A stretch of DNA of 49,389 nt. Source: a virus (taxonomy: Duplodnaviria; Caudoviricetes). The translations under genes and the position numbers were made by a program. The stretch lies in IMG/VR virus record IMGVR_UViG_3300038674_000709, positions 1 to 49,389 of that record. The stretch is one strand, 5' to 3'. This document shows positions 6,001 to 49,229 of this stretch, in pieces. A model generated the notes under the pieces. That model was not told the origin of the DNA, ran no database searches, and was given only the letters and a program-made list of their open reading frames with translations. The first letter of the stretch is position 1. The number at the start of each line of letters is the position of its first letter.

Positions 6001-7961
6001 CCTGCATTTTTTGCATGGATCGCCAATCCGCCCGTTCCCGCCGAAGGTTCCAGTACAATATCTTCGGAGTTGATATTCGCCAGCCATGCCGCCGCAAACG
6101 CGTAGTGCGGCGGTGTCGAGAATTGCTGCATTGATGCCTTTTCACCCGACCGGCTCTGTTGAGCGGGGATTCTGGACAGCACTTTTTGCAGTTCTCGCAG
6201 GGTTTCAACTGCCTGCTCGACGTTTACAGACGGATCGGTCATCTTTGACAGATAGGTATGAACGCCGGTTTCCAGTTCATCATAAGCATCGGATATACTC
6301 CATTTGCCTTCTCCGCGGCTGCCGCCATAGACACGGTTGGCCAGTTCGACAAAGTCTTTATGTGAAATACTGCCGTTATTTTGCAGCAATTTGCTGATTT
6401 CAGCAGTCAGGCTTTCGAGACGAGTCCTGCCATCGACAGTAAGCGGCTTCTGCGTTTGCTCTGTTTGAGCGGCAGGCATATCCGTATTCTCAATTTTTTC
6501 AGCAGCGTTGTCAGTGGCCGGTTGTACCTGATTTTCCGCTACGGAGTCGATTTTTGTTTCGGTATCCGGAACGGCTTGCTGACCTGCTTTTCTCGCCCGC
6601 AGACGTTCAGCCAAATCCCTGCGTTCCTGAGCCGACCAGCCGGTAATATCAACTTCCTCAAAATCGCTCCGGCTGGGCGATTCCGTATCGGCGATTTTAT
6701 CAGCCCACTGCGGCGTCATAGAGGCAATGAAGTCAAGTCCTTCATCCGTTTGCATAAACTTTTTGAAATTGGCGCGATGGCGATGATCGATGATCTTGTC
6801 GTACCCGGCAACCGCATATCCGGCCCCCATCCGGACACCGCCGGGAACAGTCAAAACAGTTAATTCAACCCCGATCTCCTCAAGGTCTTTCTTGAGCATT
6901 TTAGCGGTTAACAGCAATGGATTATCTTCATCAATTCCATAATTCTCAACCCCTGTTAGCCCTCTAAGGATCGTTCCGACCCGCTCTTCACCGTATTCTG
7001 CGAGCAGATTGGACCATCCGGCTTTCGTGGAAATCGTCTGAATAAATTCCGGTATAGTTATCTTCGGCTTTAACTTCTCTATGGCGGCATACAGCTTTTT
7101 TGAAAATGGCAGCTTGCTCAGCAGATAGCCGCCTCCTTTGGCGATTGCCCCTCCCGTTTCTTCGCTGAAGGACTCAATCACCTTATCGCCCCACGATTTC
7201 ATAACCGTAGCGGCCATTGATTCGTCTTCCCTAAGCCCCACCTGCATATCAGTGCGTCTTTCGATTGCATCTTCGGCGACTCTGGGAGCAAGCCCTATTG
7301 TTCCGCGAGCCGCAGCCCCGCCGGCCAATCCAACCGTTCCGATTGCCGCTTTTCCTGCAAGTGTCTGGCCATACTTACCCAGCAGTTTTGTCATTGCCGC
7401 CTTCGCCGGAGCGCTTCCAAGAGCCGCAATGCCGCCTGTCATTGCAAATTCAGACATCCAGGTCGGCAAAATACTAACGCCCTGGGCCACCTTGCCGCCA
7501 AAAGTAACACCGCGAATATCCGCTTCATAAAGACGGAGAATAAAATCCTCAACGCGCTTAATGTCGGATTGGCGGTCGTATGTGACCTCCTTCATCGCGG
7601 CATCATGATCAAAATTATTCCGCACAAGTGCGGCATCGTAATCGCCGACGACCTGATTCCAATTGAAATTTCTGTCCGATAAACGCTGTGCCGCCCATCG
7701 TACCTCCAGAGAATCCATAATGCCCTCAACGGCCCCGACAAAAGGAACCTTTTGCCCCAGTTTTGAGCCGGTCCATTCGTCCTTCAGCATTTCCTTAAAT
7801 CCCATCGGTCCGTAAAATGCTTTTTTCGCATACGCCTGGATGGTCATATTGTCCATAACAGGCTTTTCAGCATGACCGCCTTGCATGGTCGGCTGCTGAT
7901 CATCCGGGCCGAAGAATTTTCGTTTTGCCATCTCCAAGGAATCGTCAATGAGCGTTCGCAT
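1..7961 (-). CDS. Giant polyvalent/DarB-like virion-ejected protein: N6-adenine MTase + Strawberry-notch-type SF2 helicase + zincin metallopeptidase; 3'-truncated by the window, >2650 aa
   Basis: Starts ATG 7961 (MRTLIDDSLEMAKRK). Same frame carries EPSAGTGG (6050-6027), MNPPF (5861-5847), GDGTGVGKGR (4460-4431), DEAH (4142-4131), HEIAH (1406-1392) and reads open to base 1. The ORF track lists nothing in this frame, consistent with no stop inside the window. Confidence 0.88.
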   Translation of the reverse strand, partial: MRTLIDDSLEMAKRKFFGPDDQQPTMQGGHAEKPVMDNMTIQAYAKKAFYGPMGFKEMLKDEWTGSKLGQKVPFVGAVEGIMDSLEVRWAAQRLSDRNFNWNQVVGDYDAALVRNNFDHDAAMKEVTYDRQSDIKRVEDFILRLYEADIRGVTFGGKVAQGVSILPTWMSEFAMTGGIAALGSAPAKAAMTKLLGKYGQTLAGKAAIGTVGLAGGAAARGTIGLAPRVAEDAIERRTDMQVGLREDESMAATVMKSWGDKVIESFSEETGGAIAKGGGYLLSKLPFSKKLYAAIEKLKPKITIPEFIQTISTKAGWSNLLAEYGEERVGTILRGLTGVENYGIDEDNPLLLTAKMLKKDLEEIGVELTVLTVPGGVRMGAGYAVAGYDKIIDHRHRANFKKFMQTDEGLDFIASMTPQWADKIADTESPSRSDFEEVDITGWSAQERRDLAERLRARKAGQQAVPDTETKIDSVAENQVQPATDNAAEKIENTDMPAAQTEQTQKPLTVDGRTRLESLTAEISKLLQNNGSISHKDFVELANRVYGGSRGEGKWSISDAYDELETGVHTYLSKMTDPSVNVEQAVETLRELQKVLSRIPAQQSRSGEKASMQQFSTPPHYAFAAAWLANINSEDIVLEPSAGTGGLAIHAKNAGATVNVNELSKRRASLLKSIGFNRVTTEDAEQIHNILPENERPTVILMNPPFSRAAQRMGDKRILGTDQRHVEAALKYLQDGGRLVAIMGAPLKEGKETNSFAKWLSEIKKQYNVVGHAIIPRGVYSKYGTNFPTRMLVIDKNGPTTDTKGGTVDSLEQLLYNLEGVKNARTHSGKPVTRIADLQADATKGQPGPQSVRDVSHPTGPVVSPDVSAGRDVGTGSGTTSVSGPVSGGIQAEGPVKGASGHNGGRRGTVSGGDAHPGRSGAHIGRKPLDLDAGTQKQVKITDALSAEKQKRLEELKKQIAEKLKNQLNTGIDPELMMMLGEAGLLYVEAGMRTFADWSGQVVADLGDAVKPYLKSTYMYVRNSPQAAAYAKDMDKASVIEDLTDQDIDGIINGSVQGQAGPSEQVAERRQAEEKKVTASGSDMLFTEYRPQKIHFKGAQKHPSALVESLAMASVEVPDNHVKLHIPQRLIEEGVLSEAQLVPIAQAEAAHQEFVDTPKGRMRRGYMDGDGTGVGKGRILAGIILNNWMQGRRKAVIISENPKLYAEAQRDWEAMGQDPKQVFMAKSGEPVKPKEGILYFTYHTLKQPASKGKLSRMAQLTEWLGEDFDGVIVFDEAHNMGNLGYGNKKASQMAMAGVELQNLSPNARVVYASATGATEVENLGFAARLGLWGDGTPFRSAADFINKVSERGVAAMELLSQSMKAMGMYIARSLAYNDGTEKGTVKYNRIEHNLSSDQRAIYNRLAEAWQIVFKNLTKALSDTNQGHDGGIAGRKRAAFFSAEQRFFNQILTAMQTPSVIRAIEQDLTDGHSAIIQLTNTMEAAQERAFARMEAQDDLEDFDLTPRDTLIDYVRKVFPVEQYEEHIDENGNLKVRPALDSNGNPILNREAVAARDKLIRDLEDIQVPDSPIDMIISHFGPELVAEVTSRKRRVISKVGEDGLKRKAVEKLGKKAREADIDHFLNGQKRILIFSEAGGTGVSYHSGKNFKNQQHRHHYLLQAGWRANKAMQGLGRSHRTFQESAPTISLITTDVKGQKRFISTIARRLSQLGALVMGERGAFSRGVFTASDNLESQQAKDALRTFFEDLAAGRMEGLDIGSFQEMTGLELLDKDGVLKERTPEIEQFLNRTLALTIETQDRVFEEFEKRHQDKIDFAIANDSLDTGLETIKASKIEKISEQAVFKHDKSGAVTKHVKLGVFHKVQPITWEGLHQGDKTAGRPIIKFVETENGKVYAVTDAADHTDPATGRIIPQYRLIDQKNYHFIEKYKLDSNTKGFYKVLTAETAKERWAEEVRKLPKYRKQTVHLLTGAVLPIWNKLPKEAKVRRAVTETGDEYLGLFVDNARINDVLRGLGKAEDVPHITAKEALDGVASGQLEVVLANNWRIKRVRIQGENRVEIEGADEYHKDKLDKAGAVSEQIKWKTRYFIPIGKSDVLEKLNEPIVQVIELKESDPGLAVPLDVPVELDAKGQIKQVSAMEILKTAERMFGVVIRSGKVSKQNAGVYRWKPEVVRTQSRFYGDLAVMSHEIAHHLDKMTGIRRSGLSAVARKDLRELDYVPNRGQTREGFAEFLRVYLTTDRAEQIAPNFYDFFENDWLPNHPEWQKPVATVKRMIDQWRAQGSLARGKSQISWDGKPAEPAGVPKSQIFKHKFDKAMARAYSAMKDEGHFLSRFVKEARRVGLDIKAGTSPYELYMAFTQSGPTHATEALENGVFKMTGQMDRIGPSMKEVLAEIKPEEYEDFVLYAYSRHSLESWSRGHNPGLIKIDAQANYKKLHNARFEQAAKLLTEFNNALIWMLADAGVITPQSARNIVNSYKTYIPLKRAVESLHDAKLGGKKLLNTPDPLKRRTKDGSGRQVIDPVQTTFEYAIRFYERAAQQIVINRMVEVARKAEGMGSQMEFIRPSTKVTSFTIGEIEQQLEDLGVEVKDLIEAGDIDPADMLYLYRPNYSGKSGMPIARVIVNGKPQLYEFDRDLYRAINGMNYFQLHPMLEYT
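5147..5497 (-). CDS. Nested overprinted ORF (116 aa) inside the giant-protein linker
   Basis: GGAAGGAG SD 6 nt before ATG 5497; globular-looking product MQEPIQENQLPVSQ...WIWMRERRNR; the host frame here is G/P/S/T-rich low complexity. Confidence 0.6.
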   Translation of the reverse strand: MQEPIQENQLPVSQICKRMLQRANQDPNPYAMYPTQLALWFLQTYPLEGMWAQDQEQLLYQVLFLGEFKPKDQLKVLLDITEDGEGPFPEETHTPDEAAHILVENLWIWMRERRNR

Positions 7962-25755: not shown

Positions 25756-25804
25756 GTAATTGTGGGTTGACAACTAACACTATTACAATCGAAAGGGTTA
25801 TTAA

Positions 25805-26041
25805 ATGCTTATCGTCCACCAGCAACTGACAAACATCCAAAACAAGGTATTCGCAACTACGGGCCTGTACAGTGAGCGGCTGTCTGACGGGTCGGAGGTC
25901 TTCAACGTGGTTACGACTATCGGCTCTCTGCGGTTTGAGAACGGCTCTGCAACGGACATGAATTCCGGAGTCAAACTGTACACGCTGACCAGTCAAAGCC
26001 TTCTGAAGTGTTTTCACGACTGCGAAATTGATCACCTGTAA
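25805..26041 (+). CDS. Hypothetical early protein
   Basis: 78 aa, GAAAGGGTTATTAA before ATG. Confidence 0.6.
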   Translation: MLIVHQQLTNIQNKVFATTGLYSERLSDGSEVFNVVTTIGSLRFENGSATDMNSGVKLYTLTSQSLLKCFHDCEIDHL

Positions 26042-26066
26042 ACACTGGCCGAAAGGGGTTATCACT

Positions 26067-26477
26067 ATGAAAACGATCACACTGAATGAATTCAATTCAC
26101 GATGCGGCGATGTCTGGACAACCATCTATATCAATCCTGAGTATGTCGGACTGCGTACCCTGCTGGACTACGATGAACGCTATGGCACGGTACTGCTGAT
26201 TGAAGGATTGTCCTTTGTCATTTCCGATAGTCCTGTTCGCCGTCTTGTTACGGGCGAATATGCTCAAAGGACCGTTGATTATCTGCTGGCCCACCGCATT
26301 AGCGGCCAGTCTTTCCCTGAACCGCGCTGCGCAGGGTATTTTCTGGAAAGCGCAGGCGTTTTTACCGCCTTTGACAATACTACCGGCGACTGCTGGATAG
26401 AAAGCTTTGACAATGAAGCCGATGCCAGAGCTTACGCACTGGGCGACGATTCCGTACTGGATAAGCTGGGAATTTAA
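26067..26477 (+). CDS. Hypothetical early protein
   Basis: MKTITLNEF start with GAAAGGGGTTATCACT RBS; C-terminal 'FTAFDNTTGDCWIESF'. Confidence 0.65.
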   Translation: MKTITLNEFNSRCGDVWTTIYINPEYVGLRTLLDYDERYGTVLLIEGLSFVISDSPVRRLVTGEYAQRTVDYLLAHRISGQSFPEPRCAGYFLESAGVFTAFDNTTGDCWIESFDNEADARAYALGDDSVLDKLGI

Positions 26478-26531
26478 CTAAAAAACTGCTGGCGTGTGCT
26501 GGCTTAATCGCACTTGAGAAAGGGTTATCAA

Positions 26532-27038
26532 ATGATGAACGTAGAAAATCTGATGTTTGGAAAAGCACTGCATCTGATGGGCAAAAATGAATCGCGGACA
26601 ATGTTCACACTTCTGGACGGCATGCGCAAACTGGGCAGGGAAGGACGGTATCTCAAAATCCACAATGAACCCTATATGCCGCTGACCATCGAGCTTGTTC
26701 AGGATGGTGTCAGGGGCTGTCCTGAAGGAACAATCATCCTCAGCATTGCGCACTACGGCCAGATGAACGGGGACTTAATGGCCGATCCCGAAATGACTTT
26801 CTTGGTCTGCGACAATGAGAAAACCCGGTACATCCGGCCTGTCTCATGGACAAATCACTACGCAGGGCGGCATGATGAATGCGCGGCATGGGCTGAAGAC
26901 GGGTCAATCAAAGGCTGGTACAACCGCCGTCTTGACTCTATGCTCTCATTTTCCAATATATGGATGCGCAATGTCAAAGCGCAGGGATTTCTCTGTATTG
27001 AGCAACTCATGAAGGATGAAACCGCCGCCTCTGCCTGA
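26532..27038 (+). CDS. DUF1249/DUF6908-like protein
   Basis: 'LKIHNEPYMPLTIE' and 'SIAHYGQMNGDLMADPEMTF' motifs; GAAAGGGTTATCAA RBS. Confidence 0.65.
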   Translation: MMNVENLMFGKALHLMGKNESRTMFTLLDGMRKLGREGRYLKIHNEPYMPLTIELVQDGVRGCPEGTIILSIAHYGQMNGDLMADPEMTFLVCDNEKTRYIRPVSWTNHYAGRHDECAAWAEDGSIKGWYNRRLDSMLSFSNIWMRNVKAQGFLCIEQLMKDETAASA

Positions 27039-27039
27039 A

Positions 27040-27107
27040 TGTCGAAACCCGTCCTTCAGGACGGGTCTGCGCTTCACTGGCTATGAGCGCACCGATGAGA
27101 CAAGCCG
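27040..27107 (+). ncRNA. Type II hammerhead ribozyme (variant core CCGAUGA)
   Basis: TGTC-GAAA-CCCGTCC/GGACGGG-TC^-TGCGCT/AGCGCA-CCGATGA-GACA; loop I TGGCT can pair with the 3' AGCCG pseudoknot. Confidence 0.8.
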
Positions 27108-27133
27108 CAAAACAACAATGATAAGGGGTTATC

Positions 27134-27784
27134 ATGAAAGCAAAAGAACGCGAAAATCTGGTTTTTAGCTGGGACGTATCCGACATCGTCGATAATGAGG
27201 TACGCTATCGACTGGAAAACTGGGAAGCGGGAACATGGGGGATTGAATCCGACGAGCCTGACGAAGAGGCAATCCGAAATGCCGTGTACAATTCATCATA
27301 CTTCTTTGAGGATGAATGGCAATTCCTGATTGATGCTTTGAATGAATTTCTTGGAGAACACGACTTTCTTAACGAGCCTCTGCTGGCAACCGTACGGAAC
27401 TTCGGCTGGCGCATGCAGGATGGGTTCAAAATTTTCACGGCTAAAAACGCCAAAGAGTTTCTTTGGGGATTACTGCCGAATACGGACTGCACGTTCTTTA
27501 TCCATTTCAAAGACGGTGAGCTTTCCATTCAAAACTACCATCACGACTCGCCCACCGGCAATGAGTGGTACTATGTCAAGCGGCTGCGGCCTGCCGTCGA
27601 GGAATCGGCAAAGAATAACTTCAAGAACGTATTCCGTTTAGTCCGCAAGCTGGTGTATGAGTTTAGCTGGTACTGCAATACGGAATCATTCAGATAATGC
27701 GGGGGCCGCTGTCCTACCCTTCAGGAGACAATTGACAATGCCCTGAATATGATCTCGCTGGAAGACCTCTACCGAGAACTCTAA
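27134..27784 (+). CDS. Hypothetical acidic early protein with internal in-frame TAA (27695-27697)
   Basis: 187 aa to the TAA, then 28 more in-frame codons to a TAA abutting the second hammerhead. Confidence 0.6.
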
Positions 27785-27855
27785 GCCGAAACAGGGGTTT
27801 TTCCCCTGTATGACCGGTATAGAACGTCTATCCGGCACTGATGAGGCAATGACGT
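27785..27855 (+). ncRNA. Type II hammerhead ribozyme (canonical core)
   Basis: GCC-GAAA-CAGGGG/CCCCTG-TA^-TG(A)CCGG/CCGGCA-CTGATGA-GGC; loop ACGTC pairs with GACGT 27851-27855. Confidence 0.85.
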
Positions 27856-27873
27856 ATTTGAAAGGATTGTCCG

Positions 27874-28155
27874 ATGGGCATAAGAGCGTACAGAGTAAAG
27901 CGAATTAAATATGCACAAGAGCCGCTGTTCAAAATCGGAGAACATCCGAACGTGGATTTCTGGATTGACCTGAATTGCAGTTTCGGATCGCTGAATGCGG
28001 CTTTTGAGATTGACAGGGATCTGCTGGAAGAACTGCTCAGCGACATCGAGCAGGCCAAAAAAGAACATGGTTTTGATGATGGCGATATTGACGTGCTGAA
28101 AGCCATGCTCGAAGAATGCGGCGACGAAGATTGTGTTACTTACCACTGTTTTTAA
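27874..28155 (+). CDS. Hypothetical acidic protein
   Basis: 93 aa, GAAAGGA RBS. Confidence 0.6.
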   Translation: MGIRAYRVKRIKYAQEPLFKIGEHPNVDFWIDLNCSFGSLNAAFEIDRDLLEELLSDIEQAKKEHGFDDGDIDVLKAMLEECGDEDCVTYHCF

Positions 28156-28168
28156 CTATGAAAGGACG

Positions 28169-28621
28169 ATGTATATGTACCGGCAAACGATTACTGAAGC
28201 ACTGCAAATGATCAAGCAGATTGCCTATGCGCAGGATGAAACAGGCAACCAGATTCACACCGATGGGATTATCCTGCTGTTGGAACAAGCCTGCGGCAAG
28301 CTGGAGAGGCCATTGCATGAAGGCGGCCTGCGCCCGATTGTACTGCTGATGTCTCCCGCACAAATCAGCAAACTGCAAAGATTATGCGTTGATGGCGGAG
28401 AAACCGAACAGGATTATCCGGCAATGGCACAGGTCTTGTTAAACGTGGCGATAAGCAGAGAACCGCAACGGAAAATGTCGCTTTCAGACCTTCGCGACGG
28501 CGGCGATTGTCCCCAGTGCGGGGCCGAAGAATCCATCGTCTATCATCGGGACAGCGGCAGAGATGATGAACACTATGAATGTGAAAAATGCGGCGAAACG
28601 TGGTACGTTGGGATTTTATGA
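28169..28621 (+). CDS. Hypothetical protein with C-terminal zinc ribbon
   Basis: CPQCG...CEKCGETW; GAAAGGA RBS before ATG 28169. Confidence 0.65.
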   Translation: MYMYRQTITEALQMIKQIAYAQDETGNQIHTDGIILLLEQACGKLERPLHEGGLRPIVLLMSPAQISKLQRLCVDGGETEQDYPAMAQVLLNVAISREPQRKMSLSDLRDGGDCPQCGAEESIVYHRDSGRDDEHYECEKCGETWYVGIL

Positions 28622-28705
28622 AAAAAGCCCGCCGATTGCGTTGAATCGACGAGCCACTTTGGGTTATCACGCCGTCCAGTGTATCTGCCGGACGGCACTT
28701 GTCAA
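28621..28705 (-). ncRNA. Predicted antisense sRNA gene (promoter, ~50-nt RNA, terminator)
   Basis: TTGACA (28705-28700)-16-TACACT (28683-28678); transcript starts about GUGAUAACCC (28670-28661), then hairpin GCTCGTCGATT/AATCGGCGGGC and U6. Confidence 0.65.
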
Positions 28706-28798
28706 GGACTAAGACATGGATTTTGGATTATGGATCATATTGGTCTTACTAACTTGGGCATTTTGGAAAAAATGCTGGAAAGGATAAGGGTTATCACA

Positions 28799-29438
28799 AT
28801 GCAGTTACACGAAGAATTCAGACCGAAAAACTGGCACAATGTAGTGGCACAGGCCAAAGTCATTGATCAGATTAACGCTCTGCGCTCGCGCGGTCTGGCC
28901 GGTCGCGCTTATTGGATCAGCGGCCAATCCGGAACCGGCAAAAACCACCATTGCCATGCTGCTGGCCTCCGAAGTCGCCGACCCGTTTTGCATTACAGAA
29001 CTTGATGCCGGACAGCTAACCCCCGCTATGGTCAGCCAGATCGAGCAGGAAATGACTTTTTACGGCTGGGGCGGCAAAGGCAGGGCCTACATCATCAACG
29101 AAGCACACGGCCTCAGAAAAGCCGCCATACGGCAATTGCTGGTGCTGTTAAAACGGCTGCCCAATCATGTGGCGATTATCTTTACGACCACTACAGAAGG
29201 TCAGGACATGCTGTTTGAAGACAATGAAGATACGGGGCCGCTATTGAGCCGCTGCGTTGAACTGCGCTTAAGCCGCCGAGACCTGGCAAAGCCGTTCGCC
29301 GAACGAGCCAAACAGATCGCTGAAAGCGTCGGTCTGGACGGACAGCCGCTGGAAAAATATGTCCGGCTGGTGCAATCATGCAAAAATAACCTGCGAACCG
29401 TCTTGCAGGAGATCGAAAAAGGAATAATGAATCAATGA
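28799..29438 (+). pseudogene. Clamp-loader/DnaX-like AAA+ ATPase, frameshifted in Walker A
   Basis: MQLHEEFRPKNW...GQSGTGK then TTIA...YIINEAH...LLSRC in the +1 frame; A5 run at 28940-28944 where A4 restores GKTT. Confidence 0.75.
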
Positions 29439-30193
29439 AACGAAAAAAGCCCACCAAAGCCGTCATTTACTGCCGCGTATCGGACTCCCGATACGCGGCG
29501 GAATCCGAATCGTGCCGGACACAGGAACAACTATGCCGTGCCTGGTGCCAATCCCAACAACTAACAGTCGTATGCTGCCACAGCGACAAGGCGATCAGCG
29601 GGGCCAAAGCAGACAACCGCCCCGGCCTGCAACATGCAATCCATGATGCCTGTCAGCACCGTGCCGTGCTGGTCGTGTACAGCCTGAGCCGATTTGCGCG
29701 CAATCTGAGAGAATGTCTGGAATTGGTGGATACGATCCATCGGAAGAATGCCGATTTTGCCAGTGTAAAAGAGAACTTTGATACCGCCAGTCCGTCCGGC
29801 GAACTGATTTTCCATATCTTCGCCGCCTTGCAGGAGTTTGAACGCCGGCAAATCGCACAGCGCACCCGCGATGCCATGCTGATCCATCAGGCCAATGGCC
29901 GGATCATGTCCGAACGGCTGCCCTACGGCTGCATGGTCGATCCGGCGGATTCGAGCAGAATGATTCCCAATCCGCACGAACAGAAAATCATGATGCGGGT
30001 GGCAAGCTGGCGGCAGCAGGGGTATAAACTGCGTGCGATAGCAGAGCGCCTTAACGCAGGCGGAGAAAAATTCGCCGCCCGCCCCGTCTGCGGCAAGCCC
30101 TCCAAATGGACGCATGGCCGCGTAGTATTCGTTCTGAAACGCGCCGAACAAGCGGGCCTGTACAAACCGTCCCGCCAGGAGCAAAACGCCTGA
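29435..30193 (+). CDS. Serine recombinase (resolvase domain + recombinase domain)
   Basis: AVIYCRVS catalytic Ser, 'RPGL', 'SLSRFARN', 'EFER', 'PYG'. Confidence 0.9.
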   Translation: MKRKKPTKAVIYCRVSDSRYAAESESCRTQEQLCRAWCQSQQLTVVCCHSDKAISGAKADNRPGLQHAIHDACQHRAVLVVYSLSRFARNLRECLELVDTIHRKNADFASVKENFDTASPSGELIFHIFAALQEFERRQIAQRTRDAMLIHQANGRIMSERLPYGCMVDPADSSRMIPNPHEQKIMMRVASWRQQGYKLRAIAERLNAGGEKFAARPVCGKPSKWTHGRVVFVLKRAEQAGLYKPSRQEQNA

Positions 30194-31409: not shown

Positions 31410-31997
31410 TTAACGGCAGCGGGTGCGTCGTTTGCCATAAAGACAAATGCCGCCAACAGCAAAGAGCATCATTGTAGTGGGTTCGGGGATGATAGTTATG
31501 TTGTCGAGAACACTTGAGGCCCCTTGAGAATAAATTCTGATGTTAAATGCACTTCCATCAAGCCACAGGCCAGTCAAATAGGTATTCTGGTATGTCCAGC
31601 CGGGCTGGCAATAAACAGTGATATGGTTTATGTCTCCGGGAGCCGGATAATAGGCATTGATTGAGTCGATCTGCCCTCCAGTGAGAACGATAAAAGCATT
31701 ATGTGTAGCTTCTAATAGCCGCACACTTCCGCCGGAGAAGCGAAGTTGACTATTTTCCCACAATTTGATAGTGTCAAGCCCAGTTATGCCTGAGGCATAT
31801 GGTGATGTAGTATTCCGAATATCTATTATACTATTATCTCTGCCCCATATTGTACCTCCTCCCCCTCCTGTCATAATCAAGGTATCATTATTTTTAATTG
31901 TAATAGAATTGAAATAACCATCGCTAATCGTATGAGTGGTTGCAAGCACAGAGACACTCATTACAGCCGCCGATAAAATTACCATTAATGCTCTCAT
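31410..31997 (-). CDS. PEP-CTERM sorting-domain protein
   Basis: Signal peptide; C-terminal IPEPTTMMLFAVGGICLYGKRR. Confidence 0.9.
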   Translation of the reverse strand: MRALMVILSAAVMSVSVLATTHTISDGYFNSITIKNNDTLIMTGGGGGTIWGRDNSIIDIRNTTSPYASGITGLDTIKLWENSQLRFSGGSVRLLEATHNAFIVLTGGQIDSINAYYPAPGDINHITVYCQPGWTYQNTYLTGLWLDGSAFNIRIYSQGASSVLDNITIIPEPTTMMLFAVGGICLYGKRRTRCR

Positions 31998-32015
31998 TGC
32001 CTGTTCCCTTGCTAT

Positions 32016-32630
32016 TTATACCTTTTTTCGGCGCACTAACAGAGTACCCAAACAAAGTAATATCATTGTCGCCGGTTCCGGGATTACTTTGATGTTCTGC
32101 CAGACGGGGCCATAATCCAAATCGTTGATGAATTCGATTTTGAAATATGAACCGCTGTCCCACCAATGGCCCTCGATTCCCTTCATACGATCACCATTAA
32201 TCCATGACCATCCATCTCGTGCATGAATAAAAACGTTCTCATCGTTTGAGGGATATCGCATAGTTTTGATGTAATTGATACTTCCGCCCTTGAGGGTTGC
32301 TGTAGTATTTTGACCAATTTGGATGTATTCAGTTACGCCGCCAAGATAAAGCAGTTGGGCATTGTTGCCAAGCAGAATATCATATACGCCGCTGACACCC
32401 ATAATCAGAGGGGTTGATGTGGATTGTACAATCAGGCGGCCGTTGTCGCGAACCGAAATGTCCAATGCTCCGCCCCCGTCAACAATCAGAGGAATTTGGT
32501 AACTCCGCCACGTTACCCCATATTCATACTCGCCAGCGGTGATAAAACCGTCGCTGTAACCGGCAAAAACCGCCGGGATGCAGCAACCAAGCAGCAATAA
32601 AGGTGCAATTCTTTTCATCACTTTTTCCAT
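32016..32630 (-). CDS. PEP-CTERM sorting-domain protein
   Basis: Signal peptide; IPEPATMILLCLGTLLVRRKK. Confidence 0.9.
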   Translation of the reverse strand: MEKVMKRIAPLLLLGCCIPAVFAGYSDGFITAGEYEYGVTWRSYQIPLIVDGGGALDISVRDNGRLIVQSTSTPLIMGVSGVYDILLGNNAQLLYLGGVTEYIQIGQNTTATLKGGSINYIKTMRYPSNDENVFIHARDGWSWINGDRMKGIEGHWWDSGSYFKIEFINDLDYGPVWQNIKVIPEPATMILLCLGTLLVRRKKV

Positions 32631-33260
32631 TCTTAGCGAAGTATAACCCTATTTCCTTCGCCTCAGCAGAAGACTCCCAACACCAATCAATAGCAGACTC
32701 GCCGGTTCAGGGATGACTTTGACATTCATATAAACGGGATTGAATCCGAGTTCTGTTCTATTGATGAACTCAATATAAAATGGCACACCATTTGCGAGCC
32801 AGTTGCCCTGAATGCCTTTCAGGGGGTCGTTGTCAATCCACGACCAACTGTCTTTCTGAGCATGAATGAAGATATTTTCTGTGGTTCCATATTGGTAACT
32901 CGAAATTTCATTGATGCTTCCGCCCTTGAGAACAGTTACAGCATTATCGGTGCGAACGGAAATTAACCGTGTGACGCCGTTCAAGTATTCTAATTGTGCG
33001 TTGTTGAAAAGCAGTATATCATACACACCGCTGACATATCTTTGCAGCGGTGTTGAGGTGGATTTGACAATTAGGCGGCCGTAGTCGCGAACTTGAATGT
33101 CTAATGCGCCCCCACCATCGACAATCAAGGGAATTTGGTAATTCCGCCATACCACGCCATACTCGTATTCGCCAGCGGTGATAAAACCGTCGCTGTAACC
33201 GGCAAAAACCGCCGGGATGCAGCAACCAAGCAGCAATAAAGGTGCAATTCTTTTCATCAC
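32530..33260. repeat. 92-bp identical direct repeat (32530-32621 and 33169-33260)
   Basis: Identical signal-peptide/N-terminal coding sequence of the two PEP-CTERM paralogs. Confidence 0.9.
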
Positions 33261-33269
33261 ATTCTCCAT
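32649..33269 (-). CDS. PEP-CTERM sorting-domain protein (paralog of 32016-32630)
   Basis: Signal peptide; IPEPASLLLIGVGSLLLRRRK. Confidence 0.9.
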   Translation of the reverse strand: MENVMKRIAPLLLLGCCIPAVFAGYSDGFITAGEYEYGVVWRNYQIPLIVDGGGALDIQVRDYGRLIVKSTSTPLQRYVSGVYDILLFNNAQLEYLNGVTRLISVRTDNAVTVLKGGSINEISSYQYGTTENIFIHAQKDSWSWIDNDPLKGIQGNWLANGVPFYIEFINRTELGFNPVYMNVKVIPEPASLLLIGVGSLLLRRRK

Positions 33270-33345: not shown

Positions 33346-36222
33346 TTACTCTAACTGGACTGTTCCGGTCTGCAATTCAACCAGATTCTGACAGACCGCA
33401 TCCATAAACTCCTGCCATAGCTGAGCGTCGATTTCCTGCTGAATCAGCGGGTCTTCCAGCCAAATTTGTTCCAGGAATACAATCGCCGAAGCCAGATCAA
33501 CCATCTGCTCCTGTACGGATTTCTGCTCAATGACAAGCGGTTCAGCCGTCGTTTCCATCATTGCCAACATTTGCATTTGTTCGCCACCGGACATTGTCTG
33601 CAAATCTTCTGAATACCAGCAGGCCCGCCAAAGCCACGGTGCATCCTCAAGGAAAAAGATCAGGTCGGCCAGATCAATGGCATGCGCACTGAGCCCCTGT
33701 GTTGCAAAGTTAAACTGATGTCCGTCCGGATACCACAGGGCCGTTTGCACAGAGGTAACATAGCCTGGGCTGTTCGGGTCGGTGCGGTATTCATAATCCG
33801 GGTTATTCGGATCGCTTAATGCGGTATCGTTGGGGTCATGCGCCCCAAAGAAGCGCGAAAAGCGGGCGAACTCTTCGAGATTAATCAATCCATCCGCATT
33901 AATGTCGTATGGGCTGGATACATCCATGTCGCAGGCGATCTCATACGCTCCCGCATCGACGGCATAGCCGGATTTTCTTGGTCTGCCGTCCATGTCCAAC
34001 TGCGTTTCATACAGCGCCATGAATTCAGGCGATTGGTCTGAGAGATACCTGCACGGGCTGCCCGGCGAGATTCGGACATTGTTGGGGTCGAAATACAAGA
34101 ATTCAGGATCGAGACTCGTATTGAAGTTAATGCTGTTTGCGTCTTCAATGCAGGAGTACATTGCCGCCTGATCTGCGGAAAAACCTACAAGGGCGGGGCC
34201 GCCATTGTGAAAAATAATCGAGTTGTAAATCTCCGGCAACTGGGTTCCCGCAAGAGCAACGCCTTCTGTGAAGTTATGCGATATTGTCACGTTCTGGAGA
34301 TAGGGTCTCTGCGGCGGATTCGCCATCATGAGACCTGCACGACCTTGGCGCAAAACGTCACTCTCCGACAGGACGCTATTGATAACAATGGGAACAGAGT
34401 TCAGGCTGTAGATGCCATATTGGCCGCTCTGCCGCACCCAAACGTTCTCCAGATAAAGCATCTTGCCTTCTCCGGTGTGCCGGATGCCGTCGGCTTCATT
34501 GTATCTGAAATTGACCCATTGGAATACGGCATTGCAGTTTTCTGTAAAAGCACCATAACCTAAGTTCTTAACAACGACGGAGTTAGCAACAGTAAAGTCA
34601 ACGTCCGATGCGTAAATACCTTGGCCGTCAAGTGCGCTTTCCGTAATTGTAAACCCGTCCAGAAGCGTATTATTACCCATCCGCAAAACCGTGGTATTGC
34701 GTTGCGTATCATTGATTTTGCCTGACAGAACGGCTTGATACCGCCTCGGATTGCGCAGGCCAAAATCACTGCCGCCTTTTGGGAAGCCTCCGTAAACGCT
34801 GATTTCATCCGGCAATACAAAACTATCATACGTATTCTCACCGGGTGTGTATGTATTTTGGGCGACATAGATTGAATTTACCTGCCCGCAAGGCGCAGAC
34901 CGAGCGTATTCCAGTGCATGCTGCAAATTGTTGTATGCTGTGCTCCATGATAACCCATTTCCGCCGGGAGCAACACTCTTATCCACATAAAGCACCTCGG
35001 GCGCGTCCTGCCAGCAGCAGACGGGCGTGTCCTTGGTTGCGATGGACAGTAGCCGCATTTCAGGAACAAGGATATTAGGATCACTGAGGGATGGCACGAG
35101 AATTGTGCCCCACAATTCAGCGACATTGTTCAGAACGCCTCCCGGTGCCGGGTTGCTGTCAACCGTCACTTCAAGTTGGCGACAAGCCCCTTGGCCAATA
35201 GGAATATCTCCGATTTCCCAACGATAATAGTGTTCCTGACTGTTGTAATTCTCATCAATTATCAGTGGGTTCATGCTAAGTATGAAATTGTAACGGACAT
35301 TTTTAGGCAGCCAGTCGATAATGACGGTGTCCTGCAATGTCTGATCGGAATTATTGGTAAAGCACAGACTGTAAGTGAAGGTAGTATCCGGATTTATGCA
35401 TTGACCAAAAAGACCATCATCCTTTGTGAACGCATAGCACTGAATTGCGCCGACAATGGCATCTTCAATCTCGATGCCTCCTGATCCTACTTGGTTAAAG
35501 AGCGTGCCTCCGGTTGCCGCCGTGATCTCGCTGGCCTGTCGGCGGTTATGATACAATTCATTCAGGCCGTTGTATTGGTCTAATGCGTTCAGTGCAAAGA
35601 CCTTAATCGATTGTGAAGCCAGCGCAATGATGGTGCCATCGAGTGACGGATAGTAAGGATTATCAATATCATCATGGCCGGGTGCGTCACCTGCCCAAAT
35701 CAAAATTCTGTCTGCTACTTGCCGACCCTTGAATCCAAGATTGCCAGCCGTTGTAGTCCAGTTATTCGCAATACTGACCATAGCCTTCAGTTGGCTTTCG
35801 GGATGATCCCCACCATCCCCAGTTGTAAGTCCATCAATTGCATCCCGCACGTTCTGGATATTGGATGTGAACGGTTGAACCAGATTCACGCCGTAAGCTG
35901 CATAATTGCCGCCATCATCATAATTCCTGTAATCGGCCACACTAAACATGATTGTGTCAGGACAGGAATCGGCCTCAATTGCGGCAATGATGCCCTCAAA
36001 AGCAGTCTTGATGCTGTTGATGCCTCCCATGCTGCCTGTCGTATCTACCAAAAACAGCACATCGGTCACCGCAAAGCTATGGATGCTGCAAAAAACGAGG
36101 AGAGTTAAAATGAGGAATAATCTCTTGGCTCCATATCCTGCGTTTCTCCTGTCCCTGCTTGCCGCTTTTCCTGCAATGAGATTGATTTTGCAACAATCTC
36201 CTGTTACCATCTTGGTTTTCAT
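33346..36222 (-). CDS. Secreted VWA + DUF11-like + right-handed beta-helix + dockerin-like protein
   Basis: FLVDTTGSM (DxTGS MIDAS), 'IIDWLP' DUF11-like segment, 'LYVD..A..GGNGLSW..AY..LQ.AL', 'DMDG.PR...VDAGAYE', 'DINADG.INL.EF'. GGGAGG SD before ATG 36222; in-frame upstream ATG at 36291. Confidence 0.8.
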   Translation of the reverse strand: MKTKMVTGDCCKINLIAGKAASRDRRNAGYGAKRLFLILTLLVFCSIHSFAVTDVLFLVDTTGSMGGINSIKTAFEGIIAAIEADSCPDTIMFSVADYRNYDDGGNYAAYGVNLVQPFTSNIQNVRDAIDGLTTGDGGDHPESQLKAMVSIANNWTTTAGNLGFKGRQVADRILIWAGDAPGHDDIDNPYYPSLDGTIIALASQSIKVFALNALDQYNGLNELYHNRRQASEITAATGGTLFNQVGSGGIEIEDAIVGAIQCYAFTKDDGLFGQCINPDTTFTYSLCFTNNSDQTLQDTVIIDWLPKNVRYNFILSMNPLIIDENYNSQEHYYRWEIGDIPIGQGACRQLEVTVDSNPAPGGVLNNVAELWGTILVPSLSDPNILVPEMRLLSIATKDTPVCCWQDAPEVLYVDKSVAPGGNGLSWSTAYNNLQHALEYARSAPCGQVNSIYVAQNTYTPGENTYDSFVLPDEISVYGGFPKGGSDFGLRNPRRYQAVLSGKINDTQRNTTVLRMGNNTLLDGFTITESALDGQGIYASDVDFTVANSVVVKNLGYGAFTENCNAVFQWVNFRYNEADGIRHTGEGKMLYLENVWVRQSGQYGIYSLNSVPIVINSVLSESDVLRQGRAGLMMANPPQRPYLQNVTISHNFTEGVALAGTQLPEIYNSIIFHNGGPALVGFSADQAAMYSCIEDANSINFNTSLDPEFLYFDPNNVRISPGSPCRYLSDQSPEFMALYETQLDMDGRPRKSGYAVDAGAYEIACDMDVSSPYDINADGLINLEEFARFSRFFGAHDPNDTALSDPNNPDYEYRTDPNSPGYVTSVQTALWYPDGHQFNFATQGLSAHAIDLADLIFFLEDAPWLWRACWYSEDLQTMSGGEQMQMLAMMETTAEPLVIEQKSVQEQMVDLASAIVFLEQIWLEDPLIQQEIDAQLWQEFMDAVCQNLVELQTGTVQLE

Positions 36223-36485
36223 ATAAACCTCCCTAAAACAAAGTTGTCCCCCCATCTGTTTAATAAAGCTCTCAGTCAAATTTACAACCATTTATTTCAT
36301 GCAGCCTCCTTTCTTGTGTAATCCCTTTCATTTTTAGAAAATCCGGGCTGCACAAAGAAAGAACCCCTTCACCGAATCCTTTCGCAGCCCGGCACTATTT
36401 AGTTGTCAATATGCCGGATGGTATGAACCCAGAGAACACACCATTCCGGCAAACCGCACTATGGCGGCGGCAGAAAATTGTAGTA

Positions 36486-44767: not shown

Positions 44768-45606
44768 CAGTCGCCTCCCGCCATGAGACTGTCCAGATAC
44801 GTCTTGCACTTTTGGACCATCGGCATCGTCCATTTCTCCTGCTTATCCACATCGGATTCATTGCAGGCTAATCCCAATGCCGCCATCTCCTTAAAATGAG
44901 TTGCCGAAACCGCATCCGCCGGGTCCAATCGCATCCACTCACAAAATGCGTTGTACAACCCTTTCAGAGACACCTTGACCAGATTGGCATCAGAGACCGG
45001 GTTAACAGACGGCAGCGCCCCCGGGCCCGCCCGGTCCGTTACCGGTTGCTCGGCAGGCGCCGGGTGTTGTCTGCGTTGTTAGCGCGGCGGCGTGTCGCAT
45101 GTGGGCTGCGGCAGCATGTCATCTTCTTCGATCTCCTGAGTGATATGAATGCCCTGCATGACTTCAGGCCACCCGTCACGCAAGCCGAATCCGAGCGCCC
45201 TGTACCGCTTCATACGCGTTTCATATTCGCGCCAAGGCCCTGACTTACCGATCAGATTCGCTTTTTTGGCGTCTTCATGAGAAAACTGCCGTTCAATCGG
45301 TTTGGCTTGATCTTTCCGTTTTCCCTTAAAATAAGCCGTTCCGTTCTCAAACCATTCCTCGATGTACTCGCAAAGACCGCTTTTACGTACCAACCCCAGC
45401 GCCAAATCACCATCGACGGTAGGCGTGGTTCCTTTGTAGGTGATCCCTTTCAGAGAGGCCATCGGCCCGATCCCAAGCTCGTCGCCATACTGAATGATGC
45501 AAAGAATCTGCTCGACCGTCAGCTTCTTGTCTCTTGTCGCTCGTATGCCTGCTTTTGCCGCACATTCGGCAAAACTCAGCATGTCCTGATACGTGCTGAA
45601 TTTCAT
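44767..45606 (-). CDS. RecT-like single-strand annealing protein with internal TAA at 45079-45081
   Basis: 'IQYGDELGIGPM', 'DAKKANL..K.GPW..Y..RM..YRA'; the frame continues after TAA into the 44767-44973 ORF. Confidence 0.7.
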
Positions 45607-46640
45607 AACCTGCTCTCCATGAAAATCTGTACCAAAAGTTCTCTGAATGCTTTTTCTGCGGTCTGCTGCACTATTCCGTTGCCTGTAAGTCGAAGGCGGT
45701 CCACCCGACAGGCCATCCCATGAGTTGTTCGACCCAGTCCGGGTTCAATTGTCCGCGGCTTTTCCCAGTCAAATTGCTCGCATCCGGGTCGTGCCGGCCA
45801 TCTTCCACAACCGCGCACAGATAATGCTTCTTCTTCATTGTTAGCTGACTCCTGCTTCCTTTTGGGCCGGTCCCCTTCCATTCGCTGCTGCGTGGTGTGG
45901 GCCAGTTGACCATATCGATCAGGGATTCGCCCGTATGCGCTCCCCGTCTTTTTTTCTGAATGTAGGTCTCCGATGTCCCCCGCGTTGCATCGCAGGTATT
46001 CGGGGTCGCCCAGTTGCCCTGATCTCGCAATTTGTAATGGCCGTTCTTCCCCTGGGCATTGAGGTTGTCCATAAATCCGCCCTCGCCATCGCTGGAATTG
46101 GGCGTTCTCCAGGCCGAGAATGAAGACCCGCTGGCGTTTATGCGGAGCGCCGATTTCCTCCGCCGAATACAATCCCCACGACGCTGTGTAACCTCTCTCT
46201 TCCAAATCTCTGAGGACATACAGCAGTACCGGCGTTCCGTCGAGACATTTTGTGGTAATGATGCCCGGCACGTTTTCAAGGAAAACAAGGGCAGGTCGGC
46301 ACAATCGAATGCCGCCTGCAATGAACGGCCACAGGTGTCTTGGATCAGTCGTTGCAAGGCCCTTTCCAGCACAACTGAACGGCTGGCAAGGAAAGCCCGC
46401 TGTGAGGACATCATAACATCCGTGAGCCTGCCGATAAGGGAAGGTTTTAACATCCGGCCACACAGCGTCGAGAGCCAGCCGACCCGTTTGAGCCTTTTCA
46501 ACCAGATTTGCGATGGCGTAGGCTTCGATCTCCACAGCACAGATTCGGCAAGGAGTTCGGAGAGCTTTTTCAACGGCTCTGTCGAGCATCGCTGATCCGG
46601 TTGCCAGTGACAGTATTCGGAGGTAATCGGCACGATCCAC
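45603..46640 (-). CDS. C5-cytosine DNA methyltransferase (alpha chain)
   Basis: AGFPCQPFS, ENV, HKRQRVF, 'RLRLTGNG'; motif I degenerate (SLATGSAM). Start GTG 46640. Confidence 0.85.
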   Translation of the reverse strand: MDRADYLRILSLATGSAMLDRAVEKALRTPCRICAVEIEAYAIANLVEKAQTGRLALDAVWPDVKTFPYRQAHGCYDVLTAGFPCQPFSCAGKGLATTDPRHLWPFIAGGIRLCRPALVFLENVPGIITTKCLDGTPVLLYVLRDLEERGYTASWGLYSAEEIGAPHKRQRVFILGLENAQFQRWRGRIYGQPQCPGEERPLQIARSGQLGDPEYLRCNAGDIGDLHSEKKTGSAYGRIPDRYGQLAHTTQQRMEGDRPKRKQESANNEEEALSVRGCGRWPARPGCEQFDWEKPRTIEPGLGRTTHGMACRVDRLRLTGNGIVQQTAEKAFRELLVQIFMESRL

Positions 46641-46642
46641 AC
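45671..46642 (-). CDS. Overprinted MTase partner (beta chain) in an alternative frame
   Basis: 323 aa with W(R/A/P)TP repeats and C-terminal LNPDWVEQLMGWPVGWT (motif IX-like). Confidence 0.7.
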   Translation of the reverse strand: MWIVPITSEYCHWQPDQRCSTEPLKKLSELLAESVLWRSKPTPSQIWLKRLKRVGWLSTLCGRMLKPSLIGRLTDVMMSSQRAFLASRSVVLERALQRLIQDTCGRSLQAAFDCADLPLFSLKTCRASLPQNVSTERRYCCMSSEIWKREVTQRRGDCIRRRKSALRINASGSSFSAWRTPNSSDGEGGFMDNLNAQGKNGHYKLRDQGNWATPNTCDATRGTSETYIQKKRRGAHTGESLIDMVNWPTPRSSEWKGTGPKGSRSQLTMKKKHYLCAVVEDGRHDPDASNLTGKSRGQLNPDWVEQLMGWPVGWTAFDLQATE

Positions 46643-46650
46643 GATGGTTC

Positions 46651-46902
46651 CTATTTCTCGTAGAGCGGCTCACTGTTTTTCCGGCAGCGGTTGACAATTT
46701 CGACCAGTTGCTGGTAGGAGTATTTTTTCCGACCGCCCACAAGGACCGGTTGGAGTCCGTGATTGGCGCAGATCTTCGCTACATTGCGGTAAAATTCCTC
46801 CCTGGTGATATTCAGCGCTTTGGCCGCCTGCTGCGGATCAACCAAAAGCGGAGTTAACTTATGATCATCTATGATTTTTGGAGTTGACATTTCGTTTCTC
46901 AT
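46651..46902 (-). CDS. Excisionase-like HTH protein
   Basis: 'LVDPQQAAKALNITREEFY...VGGRKKY' wHTH pattern. Confidence 0.6.
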   Translation of the reverse strand: MRNEMSTPKIIDDHKLTPLLVDPQQAAKALNITREEFYRNVAKICANHGLQPVLVGGRKKYSYQQLVEIVNRCRKNSEPLYEK

Positions 46903-47286: not shown

Positions 47287-47847
47287 ATGAAATACCAGTT
47301 TGACCCACAAAAATTTGCCGTGCAGTTGGCCAAGTCCGGTTTAACCAACCTTGAGTTCGCAGAAAAAACCGGCGTTCACCGCACCAAAGTCAGCCAGTAC
47401 AAAAAGGGGCAAAAGGAGTGTAAGAATCCAAAACTGGATAGAATGAGACAGTTTGCGAAAGTTTTGGGATGCCGTTTGGAGGATATTGTAGTTGTAGATA
47501 AGCCGGAAACCGAAGAATCCGCTCCTGCTGTGATGACCCCGCTTGAAGCACTGGAGAATATCTCAATCGTTATCGAGTACACCGCGCACGGTGTACGGTC
47601 ACTGCAAGTGGATAATGAACTGCGATGGACCAGTTCCGATAATGTGCTGGTTAATGCCGCTTCAACCGCGAAGGCTTCTTTTCAGTTGCCAAGGGCACTG
47701 GCCGAGTATGTTGTGGCTGCGATGTCGGCCGGGTTAGATATAACAGGTCAAGATCGGCTTGCCGCGCAAGCAATTGTCGCCTCTGCTGGAGCGATGCAAG
47801 CAAGGCGTCGCAGAACGAAACATCATCCTGGCGAAGAAGTGATATGA
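47287..47847 (+). CDS. XRE-family HTH repressor (CI-like)
   Basis: 'GLTNLEFAEKTGVHRTKVSQY...P..D....FAKVLGC'. Confidence 0.8.
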   Translation: MKYQFDPQKFAVQLAKSGLTNLEFAEKTGVHRTKVSQYKKGQKECKNPKLDRMRQFAKVLGCRLEDIVVVDKPETEESAPAVMTPLEALENISIVIEYTAHGVRSLQVDNELRWTSSDNVLVNAASTAKASFQLPRALAEYVVAAMSAGLDITGQDRLAAQAIVASAGAMQARRRRTKHHPGEEVI

Positions 47848-48014: not shown

Positions 48015-49229
48015 TTATCCGTACTTCTTAGCGAACTCTGCTGCTTTTTCCTGACGCAATCTCGCGTAAATCTTACTTGTGTCAATATCTTTGTGGCCCA
48101 ACGCAGCAGCAGCGGCTTCAAGACCTCCTATTTCTCTTGCTTGGTCACCTAATGCGTGTCGCAGTTGATATGGAAACCACCTGTTTAATTCCGGGTTTGC
48201 TTTTTCTGCTTTATCAAGCATCCGGTCTATTGCCTTACGATATGAGTCTGTATTGTAACAGGGCCCTAACTTTCGTGGTTTTGGCTCGCGATTCTTCTGC
48301 TTACCATACAATGGCGTTTTCCGCTGCTCACGCAATTTGCTTAATCGCTGACGCTCTGATTCTTCTGGTTTAAATAGGTATTCATCTTGATTACGAAGCA
48401 GGTATCTGGCAAGTATCGCTTGGGCTTGTGGCCCCAAAAAAATTTCACGTTTATACTTTTTGCCTCGCCACTTATTTTTATGTCGCTCTGGTCTGTAGCA
48501 CCAAGGGTCCACTTGCCGGTCAATCATTCGCGGTTTCATCTGGCATAACTCATCTGGTCTCATACCCGTCAGCAGGTGTACATGTACCATATCGGCAAGC
48601 ACCTGTGTTGCATAAGGCATTATGGCATCAACCGAATCTAATTCCGCAGGTTGAACTTCTGGATGGACAATAACATCCTTACAAAAGCCTTCCTTTAAAC
48701 CATCCACGGACAGCAAACCATAGAACACGGTAGAACTCACGAGTGTTCTCTTTGAGGCCCACTTGAACATGCGTTTGATAATGCTGATGCGTCGATTGAT
48801 CTCATTGAGGCAAAGTCTTTTGCTGTGTCGCATTGCATCCTGCACCTCAATCAATTCGAGCGGTGTCATATCCTCAAGCTCTAATGCGCCATGCAGATCG
48901 ATCAAGGGACGCAGGGACAGATCAATTTTGCTCTGTTCCTTTTCACAATAATATCCCTCTGACCATTCTTTGTAGATACCACAGAGATCATTGACTGTCC
49001 GGCACATGGCACGCTTCTGCACCTGTGCTTTTTTCGGATCATCTTTGACTCGATATTGCTTGAGAATCAGCCTTGCACACTCTTCAGCAACAGCGCGGTC
49101 CTTTGTCGCCTTTTTTTGTCCTTTTGGGATCATTGCAAGGCAGACCGGCTCTTGTCCACCAGGCAGCCTGACTCTCCAATACCAACGTTCATTTCGGGGG
49201 TAAAATGACCCTGGCAGTTTACTTTTCAT
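48015..49229 (-). CDS. int: Tyrosine integrase
   Basis: GMRPDEL (R), HKNK (K), YQLRH, LGH, IYA (Y); adjacent to the tRNA. Confidence 0.92.
   Translation of the reverse strand: MKSKLPGSFYPRNERWYWRVRLPGGQEPVCLAMIPKGQKKATKDRAVAEECARLILKQYRVKDDPKKAQVQKRAMCRTVNDLCGIYKEWSEGYYCEKEQSKIDLSLRPLIDLHGALELEDMTPLELIEVQDAMRHSKRLCLNEINRRISIIKRMFKWASKRTLVSSTVFYGLLSVDGLKEGFCKDVIVHPEVQPAELDSVDAIMPYATQVLADMVHVHLLTGMRPDELCQMKPRMIDRQVDPWCYRPERHKNKWRGKKYKREIFLGPQAQAILARYLLRNQDEYLFKPEESERQRLSKLREQRKTPLYGKQKNREPKPRKLGPCYNTDSYRKAIDRMLDKAEKANPELNRWFPYQLRHALGDQAREIGGLEAAAAALGHKDIDTSKIYARLRQEKAAEFAKKYG

Follow-up and report, generated by a model that had tools for sequence, protein, structure and literature searches.

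A predicted minus-strand RNA complementary to a start tag shared by five genes in the inverted cassette of an uncultured phage

The virus record IMGVR_UViG_3300038674_000709 (Caudoviricetes; 49,389 nt) stems from an uncultured phage and was analysed in its entirety (the window). We found that five genes of an inverted cassette (25805..30193, plus strand), which comprises eight genes (g1-g7 and a serine recombinase) and lies upstream of the small terminase, share a 9-nt tag, GGGTTATYA, at their translation starts. Within the cassette, promoter-like and terminator elements on the minus strand enclose an exact complement of this tag, which occupies the 5' end of the resulting unit. We consider it fairly probable that the unit yields an antisense RNA of about 50 nt acting in trans, which would pair with the five tagged starts and block initiation. 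From these elements we infer that the unit may be transcribed, that the RNA may pair in vivo and that the tagged genes may be repressed by it.

The start tag and its minus-strand complement

Seven copies of GGGTTATYA were counted in the window when 0.56 were expected, and none of 100 shuffled sequences attained this number. Five copies sit between a Shine-Dalgarno core (AAG or AAGG) and an ATG (25805, 26067, 26532, 27134, 28799), namely before g1 (25795..25803), g2 (26056..26064), g3 (26522..26530) and g7 (28788..28796) and overlapping the ATG of g4 (27126..27134), all on the plus strand. The original prediction had listed these same five sites, and its reading of them was borne out, each copy following directly on AAG or AAGG. 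When the starts were compared across the window, five of the eight in the cassette but none of the 37 elsewhere, which were compiled by hand, carried the tag (Fisher p 4.6e-5, a post hoc comparison); the untagged cassette starts are those of g5, g6 and the serine recombinase. Judged from its sequence, the GGG of the tag can be used as part of the Shine-Dalgarno element, and the TTATCA spacer would be its private part. No start follows the sixth copy (28661-28669), which lacks the AAG found upstream of the other five and opens a frame of only 27 codons. In the DNA it points the same way as the tags; its complement would be read off the opposite strand. The seventh copy (34948-34956, minus strand) falls within a coding sequence and is no more than chance would give. 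A partial tag, GGGTTATA, was also seen upstream of the gene at 32016-32630.

That the tag simply reflects the ribosome-binding site (RBS) of the likely host, or an altered anti-Shine-Dalgarno sequence, was considered and rejected. In 70 genomes of the family holding the closest terminase, the pattern RGGGTTATYA-N0-3-ATG occurred 0-7 times per genome (43 of 70 genomes had it), which is near the level of a reversed-pattern control, and all 12 loci read had the canonical GATCACCTCCTTTC at the 3' end of the 16S rRNA. The tag is thus not the common RBS context of the host; had it been, the original prediction would have counted this against itself.

The minus-strand unit begins with a sigma-70-like promoter (28678..28705), TTGACA (28705-28700) and TACACT (28683-28678) at a distance of 16 nt, which is a consensus match only (10 of 12 positions). 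The seed, GTGATAACCC/GUGAUAACCC (28661..28670, minus strand), is the complement of the start tag; it begins 7-8 nt past TACACT, ahead of a putative intrinsic terminator (28620..28655) made up of a hairpin (28655-28626) and U6. As originally described, the sixth copy precedes no start and forms the 5' end of a unit with TTGACA-16-TACACT. The predicted hairpin and U6 were also found, but the stem has 12 pairs, three of them G.U, and not 11. These three G.U pairs are mismatches on the plus strand, and folding of a 96-nt region gave a z-score of -3.88 for the minus strand and -0.83 for the plus strand. For the predicted small RNA itself (28620..28672, about 50 nt, with unpaired 5' seed, terminator hairpin and U6) a folding energy of -17.9 kcal/mol was calculated (z -3.21; 2 of 200 shuffles were equally good). 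When 14 promoter-like sites (at least 10 of 12 matches) and 24 terminators (-12 kcal/mol or lower) on both strands were combined, no other compact unit of promoter and terminator emerged from the contig.

A perfect 7-bp inverted repeat with a 12-nt centre (28671..28696), absent from the original prediction, covers the promoter spacer, the -10 element and position +1. Its role could be that of an operator; alternatively, it could form the 5' stem in a longer version of the RNA. Further copies did not exceed chance, and the repressor region contained none; as a repressor operator the palindrome was rejected, there being no second site. The longer form (about 85 nt) folds better on the minus strand, and the last eight bases of the seed would remain open in it (0.77-0.99 unpaired).

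In the predicted 50-nt RNA the first 11 nucleotides have unpaired probabilities of 0.77-1.0 per base. When the duplex energies of this 5' end were calculated for 45 starts, the five tagged starts ranked 1-5: g4 (11 bp, -17.8 kcal/mol), g7 (10 bp, -17.7 kcal/mol), g2 (10 bp, -17.5 kcal/mol), g3 (9 bp, -14.3 kcal/mol) and g1 (9 bp with one G.U, -12.1 kcal/mol). In the mechanism we propose, the unit at 28705-28620 would make an RNA with an unpaired 5' end, which would form 9-11 bp with the tags and block ribosome loading on all five cassette genes together. The duplex covers the Shine-Dalgarno GGG and the spacer and therefore would occlude the 30S subunit, and the spacer part UUAUCA would confer specificity for phage genes over host genes. 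Since 70 genomes of the likely host family yielded no Hfq, pairing would proceed unaided or via another chaperone. As to timing, we favour a scenario in which the cassette would be damped in the lysogen or soon after infection, and the promoter might be gated by the palindrome that covers its -10 element.

The antisense interpretation of the original prediction is partly supported by these data. The sequence lends good support to a gene on the minus strand for a small RNA with an exposed 5' end complementary to the five tagged starts, but constitutive expression is not established because the palindrome covers the -10 element and position +1. Furthermore, no result supports the terms toxic, host takeover or immunity, and no function was found for g1-g4.

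Relatives and parallels in other phages

In 15 of 15 related cassettes, some of which are distant and one of which (L252) ends before the matching position, the tag and the compact antisense unit were jointly absent. No relative that keeps this tag without the antisense unit was therefore seen, a case the original prediction had counted against itself. The joint absence fits a recently gained pair of tag and antitag; it is not covariation, and the seed/RBS covariation that had been proposed for related prophages was not shown, no RNA homologue having been found in the screened loci. Convincing units were missing in 58 AAA-ATPase loci, in the loci of at least 6 kb among 116 terminase and DUF6908 loci and upstream of 13 of 18 metagenome AAA loci. 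Searches of 401 genomes of the class and 401 of the order returned distant relatives only. A closer relative, a prophage in ENA/Logan on a contig of up to 206 kb, shares 92% identity in g3. One side observation concerns L252 itself, in which three starts (~1010-650, minus strand) have in common a spacer block resembling GCT(G/T)(G)AAYTATG; this contig stops short of the place expected for an antisense unit.

Pattern scans for a promoter followed by the seed, carried out on viral contigs and genome contigs (for the latter on 121 of about 130 stretches), gave at least 174 matches, three of which had a terminator and one of which, in the unrelated phage L039, was a candidate. A terminator-plus-seed pattern was followed up for 118 of about 150 matches; among them 34 had a hairpin and one had a promoter, and the latter was the same sequence as L039. 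In the putative L039 unit (6001-6100, plus strand), TTGACA-17-TAAACT is followed by the 9-mer seen here and by a strong terminator. On the opposite strand, exact tags precede two starts and a partial tag precedes a third, and the G runs in front of these tags would extend the pairing with the CUCC of the unit. One of the five RGRGGGTTA copies in L039 precedes no start. As a second example of the system, L039 is ambiguous.

A comparable layout has been described for cluster K mycobacteriophages, where non-structural genes carry start-associated sequences (SAS), an asymmetric motif that takes the RBS position, is seldom found in the host and is conserved beyond the part that pairs with 16S rRNA (PMC3203893). 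According to the same source, SAS have a 13-nt consensus (GGGATAGGAGCCC) and occur in 11-19 copies, four K1 phages have a single reversed copy away from any start, and a subset of SAS has extended 17-bp inverted repeats upstream (PMC3203893). In papers of 2011, 2024 and 2025, the function of SAS is given as undetermined (PMC3203893, PMC11373665, PMC12699233), and late transcription of Adephagia appears to begin in the gap between genes 92 and 93 (PMC11373665). We located the reversed SAS in this gap in Adephagia (loop at 58682-58694) and Anaya, where it forms the loop of a hairpin with a stable fold (z -6.23 and -3.42, respectively). A homologous region is present in 193 phage records, and the exact CUCCUAUC lies in the loop (0.97-1.0 unpaired) in 6 of 14 cluster K phages. 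In an alignment of 12 phages the stems are kept and 9 of 27 pairs are changed on both sides, with a covariation term of -0.01; the loop of the second hairpin is variable, with the anti-SAS in 6 of 12 and a different sequence in 6. In TM4 and Pixie no reversed match was found within the last 3.5 kb. The gene 92-93 gap was also seen to be a conserved multi-hairpin non-coding region (L504 30560-30800, corresponding to Adephagia 58559-58799; homologues L505 and L508-L517).

Like SAS, the tag of the window has one orientation, stands a few nucleotides before starts of non-structural genes and is rare in the likely host family, and a single copy away from any start (28661-28669) is able to yield the complement. 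In contrast to SAS, it has another sequence (GGGTTATYA and not the 13-nt consensus), comprises 9 nt, serves five genes and belongs to another host phylum. The reversed copy constitutes here the 5' seed of a stand-alone promoter-terminator unit but in K1 phages a hairpin loop in the gene 92-93 gap. Extended inverted repeats at the tagged starts were not seen among the longest repeats listed for the window. The analogy with cluster K is thus genuine but incomplete, and phages lacking the loop can still have start motifs.

RybB-type small RNAs have an unpaired 5' seed of about 10 nt and an intrinsic terminator and act on several targets at translation starts; they need Hfq and pair with imperfect sites in host mRNAs. 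The predicted unit resembles them in its unpaired 5' seed and its intrinsic terminator with a U tail, but it would act on genes of the phage itself through a standardised site, and none of 70 genomes from the likely host family yielded Hfq. The c4 RNA of P1/P7 and the sar RNA of P22 are phage antisense RNAs that pair near an RBS in an mRNA of the same phage and block translation; each acts on one antirepressor transcript, and the complementary parts of c4 lie in loops (as described in PMC12197685). The predicted unit likewise complements the RBS region of the phage's own mRNA (9-11-bp duplexes), but it has one 5' seed for five unrelated genes and no antirepressor among its targets. The original prediction had not recognised a described system, and neither did we: Rfam small RNA families, including C4, gave no match over 28615-28710 up to an E-value of 5, and in the literature covered (mostly open-access papers) no description was found of a phage RNA directed against a shared start tag.

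More generally, and tentatively, phages may build RNA-only regulons by placing a private tag in the RBS spacers of unrelated genes and adding one anti-tag RNA, in this instance in an Hfq-less planctomycete host and on a message that hammerheads would divide into fragments of about one gene each. By this logic the SAS of cluster K would find an explanation in the reversed copy shown in the hairpin loop. We regard this generalisation as possible rather than probable. A single RNA acting through a standardised start tag would constitute an RNA-only repressor of unrelated phage genes, apparently Hfq-independent, which could be rewired by nine base changes. Since K1 mycobacteriophages share the layout, the function of SAS would be directly testable in a laboratory phage-host pair.

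Competing explanations

Several observations weigh against the proposed antisense RNA. The duplexes are short (9-11 bp), and g1 is marginal at -12.1 kcal/mol, the best untagged starts reaching -11.5 and -11.0 kcal/mol. With looser thresholds a second compact unit, which has no seed, appeared inside g7. Hfq (PF17209) turned up in none of the 70 genomes taken to represent the host family and in 5 of 14 controls, the host assignment being indirect and the genomes possibly incomplete. No RNA homologue was found in our screens and hence no compensatory change between seed and tag, and several related cassettes repeat their own RBS 8-mer 2-5 times without an antisense unit. In L039 the reversed copy also serves as RBS and ATG of an 81-aa open reading frame, and the modelled fold would bury the seed in a stem. 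Finally, the exact antisense loop is missing in 8 of 14 cluster K phages, including Pixie, which has the start motifs.

Some of these findings also suit a different explanation, according to which the tag is just a repeat associated with starts, either an RBS block copied during the building of the cassette or a site recognised by the ribosome or by a protein. In that case the sixth copy would be a dead start (GGGTTATC-ACG for -ATG) that came to lie by chance between a promoter-like site and an insulating terminator stopping minus-strand read-through. Related cassettes do repeat RBS blocks in the absence of an antisense unit (in L314, for instance, AAAGGAGA occurs 5 times), the equivalent copy of L039 leads into an ATG and an open reading frame, phages of cluster K retain start motifs even where the reversed loop is missing, and a minus-strand terminator would be useful at this site regardless because the remaining genome is transcribed in that direction. 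However, the repeats of the relatives are mostly Shine-Dalgarno cores and the conserved part here is the spacer. Moreover, the sixth copy, with no AAG upstream and its short frame of 27 codons, is placed exactly at the predicted +1 of the sole compact unit in 49 kb, and we consider a start-associated repeat alone unlikely. Pure coincidence, with tags arising from local composition and an accidental unit, appears hardly credible to us. Matches of a promoter and the 9-mer are indeed common in large collections (at least 174; three with a terminator, one of these also with tags), but shuffles never attain seven copies, and the positional bias of the tags and the strand-specific hairpin also speak against coincidence.

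The same RNA-RNA pairing could also operate in another setting. In phage lambda, PR'/6S constitutes an attenuated late leader, and the unit might be a leader of this kind, directed toward the terminase and virion genes and shut by the palindrome until the lytic switch. The short RNA, possibly in its form of about 85 nt with the upstream stem, would then stop translation of the early cassette and act as an early-to-late switch. The promoter faces the terminase, which is 3.6 kb distant, the palindrome lies over -10 and +1, folding favours the minus strand for the longer form, whose seed stays mostly open, and the reversed motif of Adephagia lies between genes 92 and 93 at an apparent late transcription start. 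On the other hand, a separate promoter-like site (TTGACG-17-TAAGAT, 25103-25075) is located immediately in front of the small terminase, the palindrome recurs neither above chance nor in the repressor region, and no antiterminator was identified, no search having been aimed at antiterminators. On balance, we consider a late leader quite improbable, and the antisense RNA acting on the five tagged starts remains our preferred interpretation.

The cassette, its hammerheads and the likely host

Gene calls in the window include a tyrosine integrase (48015-49229) and a repressor-like gene (47287-47847), and by its gene content the phage is classed as temperate. The terminase and capsid genes are encoded on the minus strand, and the cassette has the opposite orientation to the remainder of the genome. 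Relatives carry a cassette at the equivalent place, which usually ends in an AAA ATPase and/or a serine recombinase. Among the tagged genes (all on the plus strand), g1 (25805-26041, 78 aa), g2 (26067-26477, 136 aa) and g4 (27134-27697) matched no Pfam or NCBIfam family, and an Atlas search with g2 and g4 returned no named family. The product of g3 (26532-27038) belongs to DUF6908, and its predicted structure (pLDDT 86) found no structural counterpart in PDB or BFVD at E<=0.001. A clamp-loader-like AAA ATPase is encoded by g7 (28799-29438), which is frameshifted near 28940. The g4 product (region 27134-27786) ends at 187 aa and is 29 residues shorter than that of the relative P0191, which reaches 216 aa. 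The frameshift in g7 and the short g4 may indicate that this copy of the cassette is decaying or mis-assembled. Among the public runs listed for this sequence, none was an RNA run and three were DNA runs of one study, which has no bearing on expression. Contigs from these three DNA runs are identical across the unit and the g7 frameshift; the best of these runs may be the source sample.

Two hammerhead-like motifs on the plus strand flank g4. The motif between g4 and g5 (27784..27855) is a type II hammerhead ribozyme with full core by Rfam RF02276: it aligns to the whole model with 26.1 bits (gathering cut-off 37; E 0.0023 in a 301-nt scan), its fold has a z-score of -3.42, and three stems and the conserved core CUGANGA / GAAA / UH are present. 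The motif upstream of g4 (27040..27104) is type II hammerhead-like with the variant core CCGAUGA; it was detected by a descriptor scan and was not reported by Rfam. This descriptor is not sensitive, as it missed a hammerhead in L252 (1936-2007, minus strand) that scored 46.8 bits, above the Rfam cut-off. By eye, further motifs not reported by Rfam were noticed in L238 (~5260-5200, minus strand) and L039 (~6530-6480, minus strand). Prophage hammerheads have been described as clustering and flanking single genes or short gene blocks (PMC3088659), and the two motifs around g4 are alike in this respect; the likeness concerns neighbours of the antisense unit.

The host is probably a planctomycete of the Phycisphaerae. 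This assignment is based on terminase matches at E<=1e-60 in 7 of 401 Phycisphaerae genomes, on the named relatives of the g7 AAA ATPase, which are from Planctomycetota, and on the PEP-CTERM genes carried by the phage. Three similar small genes were seen at 31410-33269 (minus strand), two of them matching PEP-CTERM, next to a gene of 981 aa at 33346-36291 (minus strand), and homologues of these genes adjoin the cassette in L236. The stand-alone clamp-loader-like AAA ATPases of about 212 aa (L004 5646-6281, minus strand, and relatives) form a family of 3427 proteins at E<=1e-20, and in these phages the gene is often followed by a serine recombinase and located upstream of the terminase. At 45603-46742 (minus strand), two long frames of 379 aa and 323 aa overlap on the same strand, the former of which we take, by its motifs, to be DNA cytosine methyltransferase-like.

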